This document shows positions 23,688 through 30,916 of a stretch of 35,244 nucleotides of DNA, piece after piece (the first letter of the stretch is position 1; every line of letters starts with the position of its first letter). Made by a program: the position numbers and the translations under genes. This stretch comes from a virus (lineage: Duplodnaviria; Heunggongvirae; Uroviricota; Caudoviricetes), in IMG/VR virus record IMGVR_UViG_2740892431_000022; one strand, 5' to 3'. The notes under the pieces are model-generated. The model ran no database searches. It had not been told where the DNA came from and saw only the letters and a program-made list of their open reading frames with translations.

Positions 23688-23938
23688 TGAAAGAATACCG
23701 CTATTCCGGCCCGGCCAGCGGCGTCACGCTGTCGGACGGAACCGAAATCCTGCTCTGGCCGGGGAAGACGGTTTCCCTGCCGGAGGAGCATGACTACGTG
23801 AAGGTACTGGTGGCGCTGAAACATCTGACGCCGGTACCTGAAGAGACTAAACCCGCCGGCACACCGGCTGTGCAGTCACCAAAGCGCAGAAGCAGCAGTG
23901 ACAGCGAAGTGAAAACGGAGGACACCCATGGCAGCTAA
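23684..23938 (+). CDS. Hypothetical small protein (84 aa)
   Basis: Coupled ORF upstream of the sheath gene. Confidence 0.5.
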   Translation: MMKEYRYSGPASGVTLSDGTEILLWPGKTVSLPEEHDYVKVLVALKHLTPVPEETKPAGTPAVQSPKRRSSSDSEVKTEDTHGS

Positions 23939-25355
23939 CTATCTGCATGGTCCCGAAACCATTGAGGTGGAAAACGGTGCCCGCCCGGTTAAAACGGTGA
24001 AATCTGCCGTTATTGGCCTGATTGGTACCGCCCCGATGGGGGATGTCAATACGCTGGTACAGTGCCTGTCTGAGAAAGACGCAGCGGCATTTGGCAGCCA
24101 GTTCACCGGCTTTACCATTCCGCAGGCGCTGGATGCGATTTATGACCATGGTGCAGGTATCGTTCTGGTCATTAACGTCCTCGACCCGGCGAAACATAAA
24201 ACGGCGATCGAGGATGAGGTGGTTACCTTTGACAAATCGACAGGGCAGGCCAGACTGGCGCATCCGGTTGTCGCTAATGTGGTGGTGAAAAACAGTGAAG
24301 GCAGCACCTCCCACACGGCGAACACGGACTACCGTGTTGATGCGCAGGCGGGTGTGCTCACGAACCTGGGCAAGGCTATTGAGGCCGGTGGCAGCGTGAA
24401 GGTGAGCTATGAGTACGCGGACCCGTCGAAGGTGACTGCGGCGGACATCATCGGCGGGGTGAACAGCGCCGGAAACCGAACCGGCATGAAGCTGCTTAAC
24501 GACAGCTTCAACCTGTACGGCTATTTCGCCAAAATTCTGATTGCGCCGGTGTTCTGCACCCAGAAGAGTGTCGCAGTTGAGCTTATCGCCATGGCAGAGA
24601 AGCTGGGCGCGGTAACCTACATTGATGCGCCTGTCGGTACCACCTTTGCACAGGCTCTGGCAGGTCGTGGCCCGGAAGGCACCATCAACTTCAATACCAG
24701 CTCCGACCGCGTCCGTCTGTGCTATCCGCATGTGAAGGTATATGACCCGGTGACAAACACAGAGCGTCTGGAGCCGCTCAGCCAGCGTGCAGCAGGTCTG
24801 CGTGCCAGAGTCGATCTGGACAAGGGCTACTGGTGGTCATCCTCCAATCAGGAGATTCTGGGGATCACTGGCGTGGAGCGCCAGCTGTCCGCGATGATTG
24901 ATGACCCGCAGAGTGAGGTGAACCTGCTTAACGAACAGGGGATCACCACGGTATTCAGCAGTTACGGCAGCGGCCTTCGTCTGTGGGGTAACCGGACGGC
25001 AGCATGGCCAACGGTCACCCATATGCGTAACTTTGAGAACGTTCGCCGCACCGGTGATGTGATCAACGAGTCCATTCGTTATTTCAGCCAGCAGTACATC
25101 GACATGCCGATTACTCAGGCGCTGATTGATGCACTGACGGAGTCGGTCAACGCCTACGGTCGCAAAATGACTGGTGATGGTGCGGTACTGGGCTTCCGTT
25201 GCTGGTTTGATCCGGCCCGCAATCCGGAGACGGAGCTGGCCGCCGGGCACCTGTTGCTGAGCTACAAATATACGCCACCACCGCCGCTGGAGCGACTGAC
25301 GTTTGAGACTGAGATCACCTCGGAATACCTGTTAACCCTGAAAGGGGGCAACTGA
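23928..25355 (+). CDS. Tail sheath protein
   Basis: 475 aa; followed immediately by the tube gene; sheath-like length and sequence character. Confidence 0.88.
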   Translation: MAANYLHGPETIEVENGARPVKTVKSAVIGLIGTAPMGDVNTLVQCLSEKDAAAFGSQFTGFTIPQALDAIYDHGAGIVLVINVLDPAKHKTAIEDEVVTFDKSTGQARLAHPVVANVVVKNSEGSTSHTANTDYRVDAQAGVLTNLGKAIEAGGSVKVSYEYADPSKVTAADIIGGVNSAGNRTGMKLLNDSFNLYGYFAKILIAPVFCTQKSVAVELIAMAEKLGAVTYIDAPVGTTFAQALAGRGPEGTINFNTSSDRVRLCYPHVKVYDPVTNTERLEPLSQRAAGLRARVDLDKGYWWSSSNQEILGITGVERQLSAMIDDPQSEVNLLNEQGITTVFSSYGSGLRLWGNRTAAWPTVTHMRNFENVRRTGDVINESIRYFSQQYIDMPITQALIDALTESVNAYGRKMTGDGAVLGFRCWFDPARNPETELAAGHLLLSYKYTPPPPLERLTFETEITSEYLLTLKGGN

Positions 25356-25876
25356 TGTCAAAGATTGAGATAAACCGCATCACGAATGCCAACATCTATC
25401 TGGATGGTACTAACCTGCTGGGACGGGCTGAGGAAGTTAAACTCCCCGATGTCTCCATGATTATGCAGGAACACAAGGCGCTGGGGATGGTGGGTAAGGT
25501 GGAACTCCCGGCTGGTTTTGACAAACTGGAAGGCGAAATCAAATGGAACAGCTTTTACCGCGATGCGATGCTGTCTGCCGCGAACCCGTACAGGTCGCTG
25601 GCACTGCAGTGTCGTTCCAGCGTCCAGCGCTACAGCTCGCAGGGGCTGATTGACGAAATCCCGCTGGTCACCTTCCTGACGATTATGTTCAAGAAGAACC
25701 CGCTGGGGACGTTCAAACAGCACGAGAACGCCGAGTTCTCCAGTAGCTTCACCTGCACGTATATCAGACAGGTACTGGATGGTGAAGAGCTGCTGCAACT
25801 GGACTATCTGGCCAACATCTTCCGGGTCGGCGGTGTTGATCAACTGACTGACTACCGTATCAATATCGGGGGCTGA
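25355..25876 (+). CDS. Tail tube protein
   Basis: 173 aa; ATGA-coupled to the sheath gene. Confidence 0.85.
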   Translation: MSKIEINRITNANIYLDGTNLLGRAEEVKLPDVSMIMQEHKALGMVGKVELPAGFDKLEGEIKWNSFYRDAMLSAANPYRSLALQCRSSVQRYSSQGLIDEIPLVTFLTIMFKKNPLGTFKQHENAEFSSSFTCTYIRQVLDGEELLQLDYLANIFRVGGVDQLTDYRINIGG

Positions 25877-26160: not shown

Positions 26161-26167
26161 CATCACA

Positions 26168-26190
26168 GGGGCTCCGGCCCCTTCTTCTTA
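26168..26190 (+). terminator. Putative rho-independent terminator
   Basis: GGGGC-tccg-GCCCC (26168-26181) followed by TTCTTCTTA. Confidence 0.5.
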
Positions 26191-26257: not shown

Positions 26258-26593
26258 ATGTCACAGACCCCATCCGATACTTTTAAATTGTCTTATCCCT
26301 TCACCACTGCTGCAGGCACCAGAATTGAGCTGGTTGAACTGAAACGCCTGACGGTAAAAGACCTGAAGCAGGTGCGCAAAATCAGCAAAAACCCGGCAGA
26401 CTGGGACGAACCGCTGATTGCCCGCAGTACTGGTCTTCTCCCGGAAGATCTCGACAATATGGATCTGGCTGATTACCTGCAGTTACAGAAACGATTTCAG
26501 CTCATCACGGGGATGGGTGAGAGCAACCAGGGCGCTGACGCAGGCGCAGGGGCTGCTGGCGAGATGGTTCCGGTTTCAGCCGGGGGAGATTGA
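26258..26593 (+). CDS. Tail assembly chaperone (gpG/gpE-like)
   Basis: 111 aa directly upstream of the tape measure gene; overlapping extension ORF in another frame. Confidence 0.75.
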   Translation: MSQTPSDTFKLSYPFTTAAGTRIELVELKRLTVKDLKQVRKISKNPADWDEPLIARSTGLLPEDLDNMDLADYLQLQKRFQLITGMGESNQGADAGAGAAGEMVPVSAGGD

Positions 26594-26675
26594 TGCCCTC
26601 GATACTGACGATCTGGAGATGTGGCTGGAGCAGGCTGAAGAGCAAATAAAAAGCGAGTACGGCGACAAATCATAG
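26258..26675 (+). CDS. Predicted frameshift-extended chaperone product (gpGT/E+E'-like), shift near 26582-26590
   Basis: Second ORF (26418..26675, frame offset +1/-2) overlaps the 3' end of the chaperone gene; G-run GCC GGG GGA GAT TGA immediately before the stop. Confidence 0.5.
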
Positions 26676-26750
26676 TACAGACAGCCGCCAGTAGCGGCTG
26701 TTCTGCGTTATTCCCTCACGTCTTTTCACCTTCCCCGGAGGTTAACCACT

Positions 26751-29700
26751 ATGTCGGGACAGTTTTCAGTCGGCGTTGTTATCGGCGGGATGATTGGCAG
26801 CACATTCCGTTCTGCAATGAGCGGTACCCGCCGTGCGCTTGATTCCCTGAGCGATACCTCACGCCGCCTGCAGGAACGTCAGAACGCTTTAACCCGTGCA
26901 ACAGAACGTTATGGTCAACTGGGTTCTTCCCGGATGCAGCATCTCAACAGCGAGCTGCTGCGGGTAAGCCGCACCATGGAGCAAATTGAGCGCCAGCAGC
27001 GCCGTCTGTCAGCGGCATCCGCTACCAGTGATGCGCTGAAAGCTAACCGCATGGCGCTGTATGGTCAGGGGATTGAAGCGTATGGCATGGCACAGACTGT
27101 TTATCATACGGTTTCCCCTGCCGTTCAGCAGTCCATGTCTTTTCAGGACAAAATGATTGATATGTCGATCACCGCAAAATATGACAATAAAACGCGGGAT
27201 GCACTTGCCGGACAGATAAAAGGCTGGGCGCTTAAATACAATCAGTATCAGGATGAGCTGCAGGAGGCGGTGGGTTCACTCATCAGCGACAATATTGATA
27301 ATGTGTCAGATATCGGTTTTCTGATGCCGGATATTGCCCGCGCGGCAACGGCAACACGCACGTCTGCTCAGGACTGGGCAAAAGTGGCCGCAGTCTGGCA
27401 AAACTCCCTGAAAGGTGCGGCCAGAGATTTTGGTGCCGTTCAGAATATTATGGCTTATGCCGGTGACCAGGGGTCATTTGAAATCCCGGATCAGGTCAAG
27501 TGGATGCAGTCCCTGGCCCCAATGATGGCGGGTATTGCCAGTGGAAAAGAGGCTGTTGCTGAAATCGGGGCCAGTCTCCAGATAGCAAAAATCGGTGCAG
27601 GTTCCACCGACGAAGCAGCTAATAATTTTAAAAACTTTCTTACCAAAATTTTTGCCCGCGATACTCAGAAACAGTTTGCTGATCTGGGTATTGATTTGCA
27701 GGGATCTATTGCGAGTTATAAAGCTGCGGGGATCTCTCCGATTGAAGGGATGTTGAGTGTTATAGAACGTTACCTCAATGCCAAAAGCCCCGAAGCGCTG
27801 GCCGGCTTCAAATCAGCCATGAAAATAAAGAATGATACGGCAAGAGATGAGGCACTTCAGGCTCTGGCGAAAAACTTTGGTCTGGGCGATATGTTCGCGG
27901 ATATGCAGGTCATGGCATTTATCCGCCCGATGCTGGCCAACATGGACAGATATCGAGAGATCCGTGCCGGTGCTCTCAGGGCTGCGGATAACGATTTGCT
28001 TGCCAGTGCTTATGATCAGCGGCTGAAATCTCCCCTTGAAGCCACTAAAACACTTATGGTCAGCAGTCGCGATCTGGCAATTACGCTGGGCGATCAATTA
28101 GCTCCATCTTTTATTTCTTTGACTCAGGAACTGCTTCCACTCATTCAGGGGGCAAAACACTGGGTAGCGACTCACCCGCAATTTGTCAGTGGGGCTTTTA
28201 AGCTCATCAGTGCGCTCCTTGCGATTAAGATAGCGACTGTTGGTCTCAAACTGGGGCTGAATCTCCTTATTTCCCCCTTTGTAAGTGTCTGGAAAAATGC
28301 TGTTTTACTTCGGGCCAACTGGCTTCGTCTGTCGCTCGCACTGGGGCAAGGCGGTAAGCTCCGCTGGCTGGTGACCGGATTTAGCGCCGTCGCCAGAGGA
28401 GCCAGAACACTGAGTGGCGTGCTCTCCGGGGGGCTGGTTCGCGGAATTATGCTCGCCGGACGTGCTGTTCTCTGGATTGGACGTGCGCTGATGATGAATC
28501 CCATCGGTCTCGTTATCACCGCTGTCGCGGCAGCAGCTTACCTTATCTACCGCAACTGGGGGGCAGTCAGTGGCTGGTTTAAACAGCGCTGGGCAGACAT
28601 TCAGGAAGCCTTTAACGGCGGCATTGTGGGAATTGGTAAGTTACTGATTAACTGGTCGCCGGCAGGCCTGCTCTATAAAGCCTTTGCGGCTGCGCTGAAA
28701 TATTTCGGCGTTGCTCTGCCGGCAAAGTTCACCGACTTCGGTGGCCATCTTATCGACGGTCTGATTAACGGTATCAAAAACAAATGGGGGTCGCTCAAAT
28801 CCAGTGTAACCGGAATGGGTGACAGCATCAGTAGCTGGTTTAAACAGTGCTGGGCTGACATTCAGGAAGCCTTTAACGGCGGTATCGCGGGAACTGGTAA
28901 GCTGCTGATTAACTGGTCGCCGGCAGGTCTGCTCTATAAAGCCTTTGCAGCTGCGCTGAAATATCTTGGTGTTGATCTGCCGGCAAAGTTCACCGACTTC
29001 GGTGGCCATCTTGTCGACGGTCTGATTAACGGTATCAAAAACAAATGGGAGTCGCTCAAATCCAGTGTAACCGGAATGGGTGACAGCATCAGTGGCTGGT
29101 TCAGCGAAAAGCTGGGCATTCATTCGCCGAGCCGCGTGTTTATGGGCTTTGGTGACAATATAAGCTGGTTTAAACAGTGCTGGGCTGACATTCAGGAAGC
29201 CTTTAACGGCGGTATCGCGGGAACTGGTAAGCTGCTGATTAACTGGTCGCCGGCAGGTCTGCTCTATAAAGCCTTTGCAGCTGCGCTGAAATATCTTGGT
29301 GTTGATCTGCCGGCAAAGTTCACCGACTTCGGTGGCCATCTTGTCGACGGTCTGATTAACGGTATCAAAAACAAATGGGAGTCGCTCAAATCCAGTGTAA
29401 CCGGAATGGGTGACAGCATCAGTGGCTGGTTCAGCGAAAAGCTGGGCATTCATTCGCCGAGCCGCGTGTTTATGGGCTTTGGTGACAATATCGCGCAGGG
29501 GGCCGCCATTGGCCTGCAGCGGACCACTCCGCTTGCAGCTCTGGCCGGGCAGCGAATGGCCAGTGAACTGCTCCCCAAAATGCCCGTGAGCATTCAGGGG
29601 CCAGAAATACGGGATAACACTTCAGGTGTTCGCTTCAGTATGCCGTTGCCCGATATCAATGGGTTTATGTCGTCTGCTAAAAATGCGATCGGAGCCGTAA

Positions 29701-30032
29701 TCAATAGTTTGTCTTCCATGCCCGCTATCCCGCTCTCCACCCGGGCATCGATTTTACCAGGGCAACGTCTGGCAAATGAGATGACACCGGATGTTCCCCG
29801 TATCCCCTCGCCTGAAATCATGGCTGCCGGATATTCAGGCCGTGGTGCAGCTGCAACCGGCGGTGGAACGTCTGGTGGTATCCAGGTCAGCTTTAATCCT
29901 CAGTTTTTCCTCAATGGCAGGGAAACCACAGCGCCTGCAGGACTGACTGGTGCCCTGAATATGAGTCTGCATGAGCTGGAAAAAATGCTGGAGCGTCTGC
30001 TGGCTCAGAAACAACGTAAGGAGTACCGCTGA
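26751..30032 (+). CDS. Tail tape measure protein
   Basis: 1093 aa, alpha-helical/hydrophobic character, follows the chaperone pair; contains an internal tandem repeat array. Confidence 0.9.
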   Translation: MSGQFSVGVVIGGMIGSTFRSAMSGTRRALDSLSDTSRRLQERQNALTRATERYGQLGSSRMQHLNSELLRVSRTMEQIERQQRRLSAASATSDALKANRMALYGQGIEAYGMAQTVYHTVSPAVQQSMSFQDKMIDMSITAKYDNKTRDALAGQIKGWALKYNQYQDELQEAVGSLISDNIDNVSDIGFLMPDIARAATATRTSAQDWAKVAAVWQNSLKGAARDFGAVQNIMAYAGDQGSFEIPDQVKWMQSLAPMMAGIASGKEAVAEIGASLQIAKIGAGSTDEAANNFKNFLTKIFARDTQKQFADLGIDLQGSIASYKAAGISPIEGMLSVIERYLNAKSPEALAGFKSAMKIKNDTARDEALQALAKNFGLGDMFADMQVMAFIRPMLANMDRYREIRAGALRAADNDLLASAYDQRLKSPLEATKTLMVSSRDLAITLGDQLAPSFISLTQELLPLIQGAKHWVATHPQFVSGAFKLISALLAIKIATVGLKLGLNLLISPFVSVWKNAVLLRANWLRLSLALGQGGKLRWLVTGFSAVARGARTLSGVLSGGLVRGIMLAGRAVLWIGRALMMNPIGLVITAVAAAAYLIYRNWGAVSGWFKQRWADIQEAFNGGIVGIGKLLINWSPAGLLYKAFAAALKYFGVALPAKFTDFGGHLIDGLINGIKNKWGSLKSSVTGMGDSISSWFKQCWADIQEAFNGGIAGTGKLLINWSPAGLLYKAFAAALKYLGVDLPAKFTDFGGHLVDGLINGIKNKWESLKSSVTGMGDSISGWFSEKLGIHSPSRVFMGFGDNISWFKQCWADIQEAFNGGIAGTGKLLINWSPAGLLYKAFAAALKYLGVDLPAKFTDFGGHLVDGLINGIKNKWESLKSSVTGMGDSISGWFSEKLGIHSPSRVFMGFGDNIAQGAAIGLQRTTPLAALAGQRMASELLPKMPVSIQGPEIRDNTSGVRFSMPLPDINGFMSSAKNAIGAVINSLSSMPAIPLSTRASILPGQRLANEMTPDVPRIPSPEIMAAGYSGRGAAATGGGTSGGIQVSFNPQFFLNGRETTAPAGLTGALNMSLHELEKMLERLLAQKQRKEYR
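28572..29492 (+). repeat. In-frame tandem repeat array inside the tape measure gene
   Basis: Two 330-bp units (28833..29162 and 29163..29492) identical except the last base, preceded by a diverged 261-bp copy (28572..28832); each full unit encodes 110 aa. Confidence 0.85.
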
Positions 30033-30916
30033 TGTTTGCCGTACTGGGTGATATTGAGTTTGAGCTGATTACCTACTGGGACGGCTTCGAGGCCACGTTC
30101 GGCGTCGATTATGCGGAGCATGCCCGCATCGGGGGTAAGCCTGGCCTGCAGTTCGTCGGCGACAGGCTGGACGAAATCCAGATAACTCTGGTTTTCCATC
30201 AGCATTATTGTGTACCCGATGTGGAGCTGGCGAGACTGCGAACAGCCATGAAAGCCCATCAGGCACTGGCGCTGGTCTTCGGCAACGGTGACTATCGCGG
30301 CTGGTTCGTGATTACCGATGTGACTGCAACCAGCGAGCAGACTGACAGTACCGGCAACGTGCTGGCTGTCAGTGCCACCGTGTCTCTCCGGGAATACACC
30401 GGTGACCCGAAAAATCCTCTGCAACCACCGGCAATACGCACGAAGCTCCCGGGTGTCGGGGCGGTCTCCGGTGCCATTCCTTCGCCTTCAGGGGTGGCGC
30501 AGTTCATCCGCAACGGCGTCAACTATGCGAAACAGGCGCAGTCTGTACTCCAGACCACTATCAGCGCCGTTCGGGTGACACAGAAAATGAAGGATAACCC
30601 CGTTGTCGCACTGACCCGTGTGCCGGGGCTGATGAGCGGACTGGGTAATATCTCCGGGGCTCTGGGGAAAAGTGTTCCGGCGTTTAACGCACTCTCTGAA
30701 TCCATGCCCGATGCCATCAGTCTGGCCAGAACAGCCAGCGAAGCAGCCACGTATGTACAGCAGGCACAGTCTGCGCTGAGTGGTGTGGACAAAAGAAATA
30801 TTGCAGGTGCTCTGGATACCGTTTCCGGGCAGCTTAACGCCGCCGGCACAGCATTCAACCGCATGTCTCCGGGATTAAGTGCAATGGCCACCAGAATACT
30901 GACGAGGAGTGTGTGA
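30032..30916 (+). CDS. Tail protein, P2 gpU / Mu N-like
   Basis: Immediately after the tape measure gene; N-terminal ...GKPGLQFVGDRLDEIQITL... resembles the gpU-type pattern; C-terminal Ala/Ser-rich extension. Confidence 0.65.
   Translation: MFAVLGDIEFELITYWDGFEATFGVDYAEHARIGGKPGLQFVGDRLDEIQITLVFHQHYCVPDVELARLRTAMKAHQALALVFGNGDYRGWFVITDVTATSEQTDSTGNVLAVSATVSLREYTGDPKNPLQPPAIRTKLPGVGAVSGAIPSPSGVAQFIRNGVNYAKQAQSVLQTTISAVRVTQKMKDNPVVALTRVPGLMSGLGNISGALGKSVPAFNALSESMPDAISLARTASEAATYVQQAQSALSGVDKRNIAGALDTVSGQLNAAGTAFNRMSPGLSAMATRILTRSV

Follow-up and report, generated by a model that had tools for sequence, protein, structure and literature searches.

In bacteriophage P2 the tail assembly chaperone products gpE and gpE+E' are reportedly related by a -1 frameshift at T_TTT_TTG. 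Tailed phages share frameshifting in their tail chaperone genes as a conserved trait, usually in the -1 direction, with a -2 shift in Mu and +1 shifts in some Listeria, Bacillus and haloarchaeal viruses (PMC5009743, PMC3498833, PMC2628397). Outside the phages, the PA-X protein of influenza A virus is produced by a +1 slip on UUU_C, at UCC_UUU_CGU, as demonstrated by peptide sequencing; the event has no stimulatory structure and is of low efficiency (PMC3498833). Here we describe a tail chaperone gene in the IMG/VR record IMGVR_UViG_2740892431_000022, a stretch of 35,244 nucleotides (the window) that is a BcepMu-like (Bcepmuvirus) myovirus prophage of Escherichia coli and includes its tail module. 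The gene is overlapped at its 3' end by an open reading frame (ORF) in the +1 frame that encodes a domain resembling P2 E', and we propose that a minority of ribosomes enters this frame at the sequence CGA_UUU_C, about 85 bases upstream of the run of G residues near the stop codon that an earlier reading of the letters alone (the sequence-only reading) had singled out. The class of feature, recoding in a tail chaperone gene, is an ordinary, textbook one, and it is genuinely present here.

The chaperone is of the P2 gpE/Mu gp41 type, the equivalent of BcepMu gp41, and its gene occupies the position between the tube and tape measure genes that characterizes the lambda G/GT class. Its match to Pfam family PF10109 (Phage_TAC_7, "Phage tail assembly chaperone proteins E, or 41 or 14") covers residues 8-81, with 74.8 bits against a cutoff of 25; the functional chaperone domain stops near F80-Q81, with no constraint on the tail beyond about residue 85. 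The sequence-only reading had remarked that the overlapping ORF lies at an offset of +1 (or -2) from this gene rather than the usual -1, and both the gene and the offset are borne out: the ORF list has 26418-26675 open in that frame and holds no -1-frame ORF overlapping the 3' end of the chaperone gene. That reading had let its proposal hang on whether the extension ORF is conserved, and conserved it is. The relatives compared were 59 loci of a one-genome-per-species collection of bacterial genomes (Enterobacterales prophages, 47-99% amino acid identity), 80 sequences from IMG/VR, a further 80 from farther afield for which BcepMu, Pseudomonas and Ralstonia sequences served as seeds, and individual phage records. 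A +1-frame ORF with an E'-like motif, heading toward the tape measure gene, occurs in 107 of the 109 distinct close-set sequences, the two exceptions both carrying indels, and in 72 of 73 in the distant set, some 180 in all, from Enterobacterales, Ralstonia, Pseudomonas and Burkholderia relatives. The motif reads …(Q/K)A(Q/M)(G/A)LLARWFRFQPSEIDxLxxD(D/E)(L/F)ExWLxxAxxQIKxE, and the extension is 54-60 amino acids long in nearly all relatives.

Profile comparisons bear on the nature of the encoded domain. Over extension residues 15-48, hhalign aligned a profile of 19 diverse extensions with the E' portion of P2 gpE+E' at a probability of 91% and E = 1.1e-6, QAQGLLARWFRFQPGEIDALDTDDLEMWLEQAEE of the extension profile being matched to DLMADVAVIFHWPPSELYPMSLTELITWREKALR of P2 E'. 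PF06528 (Phage_P2_GpE) matches 16 of 19 related extensions at E < 0.1, the best at 6.2e-6, over extension residues 20-52; the window's own extension scores 15.8 bits, under the gathering cutoff of 23. Downstream of the 0-frame stop, variability among relatives (0.62/0.44/1.22 bits) is concentrated at the third positions of +1-frame codons, which is the signature of a translated +1 frame. These comparisons indicate that the +1-frame ORF is real and functional.

The point at which ribosomes change frame can be bracketed from the same alignments. Upstream of 26498, and on up to 26512, the wobble position of the 0 frame is the most variable of the three codon phases (0.78/0.53/1.26 bits); in the overlap at 26514-26593 the 0-frame wobble is the least variable (0.43 bits) and the +1-frame wobble the most (0.91). 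This pattern argues that selection acts on the +1 frame from 26514 onward and that the shift has been made by the time ribosomes arrive at that point, and we hold it to be very probable that the +1-frame shift takes place upstream of 26514. The upstream limit is given by +1-frame stops that lie 4-6 codons before a conserved Phe codon. Such stops are present in 13 sequences of the distant set and in three further relatives: L005 (a TGA, window equivalent 26478-80), the Ralstonia phage L063 (window equivalent 26484-86) and Pseudomonas phage Komp_PAO1_1 (L064). In the Enterobacterales set the downstream limit is the first invariant +1-frame codon, the Trp codon at 26514-16; a looser limit comes from 0-frame stops found 10-15 codons past the Phe codon in some relatives. 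The shift would thereby be confined roughly to 26487-26513, AAA CGA TTT CAG CTC ATC ACG GGG ATG.

Inside this bracket a single block, CGA_TTT_C, is invariant. All 109 of the 109 distinct close sequences have one 0-frame TTT_C, and no more than one, from the PED..MD anchor to the stop, always at this position, and the synonymous sites of the block are frozen: the Phe codon is TTT in 102 of 102, and the Arg codon before it is CGA in 100 and CGG in the remaining 2. When the 25 codon columns with conserved residues are ranked by synonymous entropy, these two come lowest (TTT 0.00, CGA 0.15; the other 23, 0.36-1.9), and the rare CGA is used in only 1 of 92 and 0 of 83 sequences at the other two invariant Arg codons. 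In the distant set 64 of 72 distinct sequences have TTT_C and the other eight UUG_C. The great majority of the 64 conform to NNN_TTT_CG(C/G/T). In distant hosts the contexts are CGA_TTT_CTG in Ralstonia, GTG_TTT_CGG and GCA_TTT_CAA in Pseudomonas, and TCC_TTT_CGC in BcepMu, the codon 3' of UUU being CAG or CAA in the window's clade and CGC, CGG or CGT in the BcepMu/Pseudomonas branch. UUU_C lets tRNA-Phe, with anticodon GAA, re-pair perfectly in the +1 frame, and this anticodon pairs better with UUC than with UUU (PMC3498833). We regard the comparative evidence for CGA_UUU_C at 26492-98 as the candidate shift site as strong, and it seems likely that the frame change falls at UUU_C within it.

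According to the mechanism we favor, most ribosomes would stay in the 0 frame and produce the short chaperone, and a minority would shift +1 when the P-site peptidyl-tRNA-Phe moves from UUU (26495-97) to UUC (26496-98), a re-pairing that would swap a G·U wobble for a G:C pair. Decoding would resume at AGC (26499) and run for 58 codons to the TAG at 26673-75. The predicted fusion, 80 + 58 = 138 amino acids with the sequence …LQKRF/SSSRGWVR…LLARWFRFQPGEIDALDTDDLEMWLEQAEEQIK… (the slash marks the junction), would carry the chaperone domain followed by a C-terminal domain like P2 E'; the junction falls at the C-terminal edge of PF10109, at about profile position 74, with a spacing of about 17-20 amino acids to the E' domain. 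The frozen, rare CGA codon would stand in the E site, weakly paired through an I·A wobble, and probably helps the shift. Weaker E-site pairing has been linked to more +1 shifting at release factor 2 (RF2), and the E-site codon of PA-X is both conserved and stimulatory (PMC3498833). No conserved downstream RNA structure was found with RNAalifold in 29 diverse sequences (three pairs, -0.96 kcal/mol, no covariation), the single-sequence folding z-score was -0.39 with no Rfam match, and no element resembling a Shine-Dalgarno (SD) sequence was seen upstream of CGA_UUU_C in the alignment. Since neither a stimulatory structure nor an SD-like element is evident, efficiency is probably low, on the order of a few per cent, which would fit the small ratio of fusion to chaperone required in such systems. 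If lambda gpG/gpGT and P2 E/E+E' are a guide, the tape measure would be bound by both products, and the extension would recruit the tube protein. Comparison establishes that the +1 ORF is conserved and homologous to E', that the shift is bracketed as above and that CGA_TTT_C is frozen; that a slip takes place, how efficient it is, what CGA contributes and what the proteins do are inferred. A -2 slippage on the same CGA_UUU_C was also considered; it would take tRNA-Phe from UUU to GAU, where re-pairing is impossible, and was rejected.

Several observations weigh against placing the shift at CGA_UUU_C. The codon that would occupy the A site after UUU is, in the window's clade, the common CAG, and the classical stimulus of a slow A-site codon is absent. 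Eight distinct Pseudomonas-type sequences from IMG/VR contigs (L195, L198, L200, L210, L216, L219, L223 and L228) have GTG_TTG_CGG for GTG_TTT_CGG with the +1 E' ORF intact. In this subclade a +1-frame stop lies four codons upstream and the Trp codon three codons downstream, and manual inspection of the bracket of about 8 codons revealed no re-pairing-competent site. Because the subclade keeps the E' ORF, re-pairing of tRNA-Phe cannot be the universal mechanism, which leaves the location of the shift unaffected; there the shift may be either independent of re-pairing, relying on a weak U·G wobble in the P site plus the CGG codon in a Ty3-like manner, or inefficient. Coding in the +1 frame (GAT TTC, Asp-Phe) might, in principle, be what keeps the A of CGA and the final T of TTT frozen, were the shift to occur one or two codons farther upstream; just upstream of CGA we found no conserved slippery codon, that position being AAA, ACC, GGC, GAG, CAA or AAG. 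Lastly, GGG is enriched at 26510-12, which provides an alternative slip site in the window's clade.

If that alternative held, the shift would occur five codons downstream at GGG_A, where tRNA-Gly could move from GGG to GGA to yield …RFQLITG/WVRAT…, also of 138 amino acids. The codon is GGG in 85 of 102 distinct sequences and is rare at other conserved Gly codons (2 of 92 and 13 of 85), the 0-frame pattern of a hydrophobic residue followed by Gly lasts to 26512, and the position recalls Mu, whose verified -2 shift on CGG_GGG_CGA also precedes a Trp codon. However, the other 17 of the 102 sequences have GGA_T, GGC_G/C, GGT_A or AGC_N, which offer no +1 re-pairing, and they keep the extension; GGG is missing at this position from the BcepMu, Ralstonia and Pseudomonas relatives, and every distant relative lacks a codon here that could re-pair; the third position of the Gly codon varies (entropy 1.31); and the frozen synonymous positions of CGA_TTT would be left unexplained. 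The enrichment of GGG can itself be traced to a +1-frame preference for Gly, Ala or Asp before the Trp, which implies that the +1 frame is already in use at that point. We consider a shift at GGG_A unlikely. Less probable again, to the point of being quite improbable, is that no frameshift occurs and that the E'-like ORF is translated alone from an internal start. It is true that gene callers sometimes call an ORF of 39-52 amino acids there, and that PGAP gives a separate coding sequence in some E. coli genomes (a 46-amino-acid "GpE family phage tail protein"), but no ATG, GTG or TTG position is conserved in the +1 frame (at most 32 of 88), in the sequences that set the upstream limit the frame is open from no more than 4-6 codons ahead of the Phe codon, and purifying selection on it starts right after the chaperone domain instead of at a start codon. 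Moreover, the homologous E' of P2 is made only as the E+E' fusion (P2 GenBank annotation; PMC3091744).

The sequence-only reading had put the shift, in the +1 or -2 direction, on GCC_GGG_GGA (26579-87), with the nearby TGA as stimulus and …SAG(G)EIDALD… as product; the junction region would then read …EMVPVSAG(G)EIDALDTDDLEMWLEQAEEQIK. The chaperone ORF does end in GCC GGG GGA GAT TGA (26579-26593) with five G at 26582-86, the window's 0 frame does reach the run, tRNA-Gly could re-pair there +1 from GGG or -2 from GGA, and Mu has a G-run for its -2 shift. But the run is not directly at the stop, as had been stated, because GAT (26588-90) stands between. It keeps the stop out of the A site while a slippery codon is in the P site; once TGA has entered the A site the stop could act only on tRNA-Asp at GAU, a codon with no +1 re-pairing, so stop stimulation is impossible. 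Nor is the run the only obvious slippery sequence, since UUU_C (26495-98) and GGG_A likewise allow +1 re-pairing and sit inside the comparative bracket. Comparison of the site across related phages, which the same reading had suggested as a check, speaks against it: in a representative alignment the G-run CCGGGGGAG is confined to the clade nearest the window, other lineages having CCGAGTGAG (QPSE), CCAAGTGAG, CCCAGTGAA, CCAAATGAA and the like in its place, and the 12 nucleotides corresponding to the region are CAGCCGAGTGAG or similar in many lineages. The position of the 0-frame stop is unconstrained, falling 10, 11, 15, 25, 27, 29, 30, 32, 33, 36 or 59 codons past the conserved Phe codon in relatives, and it is often upstream of the run; in 37 distinct relatives whose chaperone ends in GEVV a 0-frame TAG precedes the G-run by seven codons and the G-run is still there. 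Homology to E' begins at about 26541, some 13 codons 5' of the proposed junction, and the fusion would lose the most conserved part of E' (LLARWFRFQP); the +1 frame is under selection already from 26514. The G-run model thus retains next to none of our credence.

An allele that is very common among near-identical prophages bears on the same point. It ends the chaperone at 90 amino acids (P0026), is listed for 1681 index blocks of the assembly collection, many complete chromosomes of E. coli among them, and differs from the window at 2 of 418 nucleotides, one of them C26528T, with the same extension peptide. In such prophages a 0-frame ribosome never gets to 26582. The carriers L231-L234, L150 and L086 are 2-3 of 418 nucleotides away from the window and have an identical extension peptide. 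In one of them, E. coli E30 (L150, NZ_CM143888.1, 301-718), PGAP calls the chaperone gene a pseudogene ("internal stop") owing to C26528T and the E' region a separate 46-amino-acid "GpE family phage tail protein" with a CTG start; both calls are artefacts of the unrecognized frameshift.

Database "fusion" proteins of 135-194 amino acids (P0004, P0006-P0009, P0011, P0016, P0023, P0028, P0041, P0060, P0093, P0099 and P0113) were considered as evidence for the junction and set aside. Single-G deletions at 26510-13, 26529-31 or 26582-86 explain each of them, often two per protein, and the 138-amino-acid proteins reading …SAGEIDALD…, which might seem to favor the G-run, fit such deletions, with similar ones seen at the other G runs. 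These proteins are most likely the result of homopolymer sequencing or assembly errors, and they are easily mistaken for evidence of a frameshift junction.

Judged by its domains, the gene pair is to be placed with P2 E/E+E'. The gene lies in the corresponding position, between the FII tube and T tape measure genes; both chaperones have an N-terminal PF10109 domain (P2 gpE, E = 1.5e-12; window, 5.5e-21); a homologous C-terminal E' domain seems to be common to both (hhalign 91%; PF06528, which the window's own extension matches below the cutoff); the product sizes are 91/142 amino acids in P2 and 90-111/138 in the window's family; the junction lies 19 amino acids from E' in P2 and about 17-20 here; and no downstream RNA structure is seen in either. 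The P2 shift and the one proposed here also both fall on a Phe UUU codon where the chaperone domain reaches its C-terminal edge, the P2 site falling at profile position ~77-78 and ours at ~74, a correspondence taken from Pfam profile coordinates that is approximate, to within about 3 positions; hhalign of the chaperone domain against P2 gpE and Mu gp41 gave no significant alignment. What differs is the shift. P2 uses -1 tandem slippage at the U_UUU_UUG heptamer, which is absent from the window, whereas a +1 slip of a single P-site tRNA is expected at CGA_UUU_C. In Mu gp41 the verified -2 shift, of about 2.2%, takes place on the five-G run CGG_GGG_CGA with CGA in the A site. Mu resembles the window in having the tail chaperone upstream of the tape measure, an extension in the +1/-2 frame, a rare CGA beside the slip site and a Trp codon soon after the junction. 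It differs in that the junction here has no conserved G-run (the window has ACG_GGG_A, with four G, where a -2 slip would give CGG, and this is not conserved), in that the Mu extension has no E'-like motif visible by eye, and in that Mu gp41 belongs mainly to PF23746.

A close parallel for the slip itself is PA-X, whose UUU_CGN motif is also found in Amalgaviridae and chronic bee paralysis virus. In both cases a P-site UUU is followed by C, tRNA-Phe can move to UUC, and the E-site codon is conserved beyond what coding needs; the distant relatives carry TCC_TTT_CGC (BcepMu) and NNN_TTT_CGN. On the other hand, PA-X involves a eukaryotic ribosome and an unrelated gene, and in the window's clade the Arg codon stands 5' of UUU (CGA_UUU_CAG), not 3'. 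E. coli prfB, which encodes RF2 and shifts at CUU_UGA_C with an upstream SD-like element, resembles the proposed slip in being a +1 P-site slip of a bacterial ribosome modulated by the E-site codon; unlike prfB, the window's relatives do not conserve the position of the 0-frame stop. BcepMu has the orthologous pair, gp41 matching PF10109 and gp42 being the +1-frame ORF with LLLVLKIQPSEIAELDMDDYWHW, and TCC_TTT_CGC at the equivalent Phe. Its GenBank record (L149, AY539836; 4603-5364) labels gp42/gp43 as the lambda G/T-like frameshift pair and leaves gp41 and gp42 unjoined, whereas homology indicates that gp41 + gp42 would be the true pair, joined at TCC_TTT_CGC. Finally, Pasteurella phage AFS-2018a (L065, MH238466; ~870-885 of the locus) has a chaperone of the same family with an E'-like extension, …VAWWFGWNVSEIEQMTLDELSTWLEQANRQIK, in the -1 frame, and a lambda-type heptamer, G_GGA_AAG, directly before the stop, where the record has no frameshift annotated. 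Use of -1 within one Pfam family suggests that the direction of frameshifting is evolutionarily labile. No homologue of the fusion with a solved structure was found, and a literature search, which did not take in the originals of Xu 2004, Baranov 2006 and Christie 2002, turned up no paper on the UUU_C site or on frameshifting in BcepMu or Bcepmuvirus.

On balance we lean toward the view that BcepMu-like phages and prophages of Gamma- and Betaproteobacteria use a minimal, structure-free UUU_C +1 signal for the E+E' fusion, taking the form CGA_UUU_C among Enterobacterales and NNN_UUU_CGN among Burkholderia and Pseudomonas, a bacterial counterpart of the PA-X and amalgavirus signal at the place where P2 has its -1 site, with the frozen CGA as an E-site enhancer. 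If this is true, one homologous gene pair has switched frameshift direction around the same Phe codon, and the UUG_CGG subclade would show the shift persisting without P-site re-pairing. E/E' homologues would then use -1 (P2, AFS-2018a) or +1 (the BcepMu-like family) at one domain boundary, illustrating that the ratio of two products is conserved and the recoding mechanism is not. If confirmed, CGA_UUU_C and UUU_CGN would constitute a compact natural bacterial +1 signal and a system in which to study E-site codon effects. For annotation, both the type phage BcepMu and this very common family of E. coli prophages have the fusion product unannotated or misassigned, and the gene is sometimes flagged as a pseudogene through the harmless 0-frame TAG allele; PGAP either leaves the extension out or makes it a gene of its own.

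Features of the chaperone region and its neighbors in the window (blank cells, no value given)
Feature	Position	Strand	Details
Sheath gene	23928-25355		ORF list
Tail tube gene	25355-25876	+	PF04985, E = 2.9e-53
Small ORF, 93 aa	25879-26160		DUF7739 match below threshold, 24.7 bits vs cutoff 27
0-frame tail assembly chaperone gene	26258-26593	+	111 aa; PF10109, E = 5.5e-21
Proposed +1 shift site CGA_UUU_C	26492-26498	+	Invariant within the bracket
Predicted +1-frame extension after the proposed shift	26499-26675	+	58 codons (SSSRGWVRATRALTQAQGLLARWFRFQPGEIDALDTDDLEMWLEQAEEQIKSEYGDKS), then TAG at 26673-75
GGG_A, rival +1 slip site directly before the Trp codon	26510-26513	+	GGG in 85/102
TGG, first invariant +1-frame codon (Trp)	26514-26516	+	Entropy 0; overlapping 0-frame residues vary, M/L/V then G/A/D/V
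C in the window, T in a very common near-identical allele	26528	+	T gives 0-frame TAG, 90-aa chaperone; silent in +1 frame, ACC to ACT
E'-like domain, +1 frame (QAQGLLARWFRFQPGEIDALDTDDLEMWLEQAEEQIKS)	26541-26654	+	hhalign vs P2 E'; PF06528
G-run GGGGG of the sequence-only reading	26582-26586	+	Inside the E' coding region; +1 codons CCG GGG GAG = P-G-E
Tape measure gene	26751-30032	+	PF10145, E = 2e-20
gpU gene	30032-30916		ORF list / Pfam

The prophage that carries this locus is widespread. Escherichia phage PhiKM, of the genus Bcepmuvirus, is 99.8% identical to the window, and of 5426 complete E. coli genomes 821 carry the segment, 573 of them at an identity of at least 99%. A segment of the E. 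coli prophage, at 99% amino acid identity, is also present in an actinobacterial assembly, on an 8.2-kb contig of "Arthrobacter sp. GMC3" with coverage of about 7 (NZ_PJIO01000028.1; L003 and L084), and is probably contamination of that assembly.

Three further observations concern the neighborhood of the chaperone gene. The small ORF between the tube and chaperone genes is conserved, and PhiKM, KP12 and E. coli prophages have it annotated as "hypothetical"; the position is without a gene in P2. GC-rich hairpins lie on both sides of the chaperone gene, at 26167-26182 and at ~26681-26701. The upstream one, AGGGGCTCCGGCCCCT, is followed by TCTTCTT and is terminator-like, and the downstream one, ACAGCCGC-CAGTA-GCGGCTGT, is placed just 3' of the extension's TAG and 5' of the tape measure gene; the two may be attenuators or elements of mRNA processing or stability. 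The tape measure gene contains tandem direct repeats of 261 and 330 nucleotides at 28567-29491, the 330-nucleotide repeat being present in 2.0 copies that are 100% identical. The tape measure protein is 1093 amino acids long in the window and 896 in near-identical prophages (L231-L233), which indicates that repeat copy number varies and that tail length should change with it.

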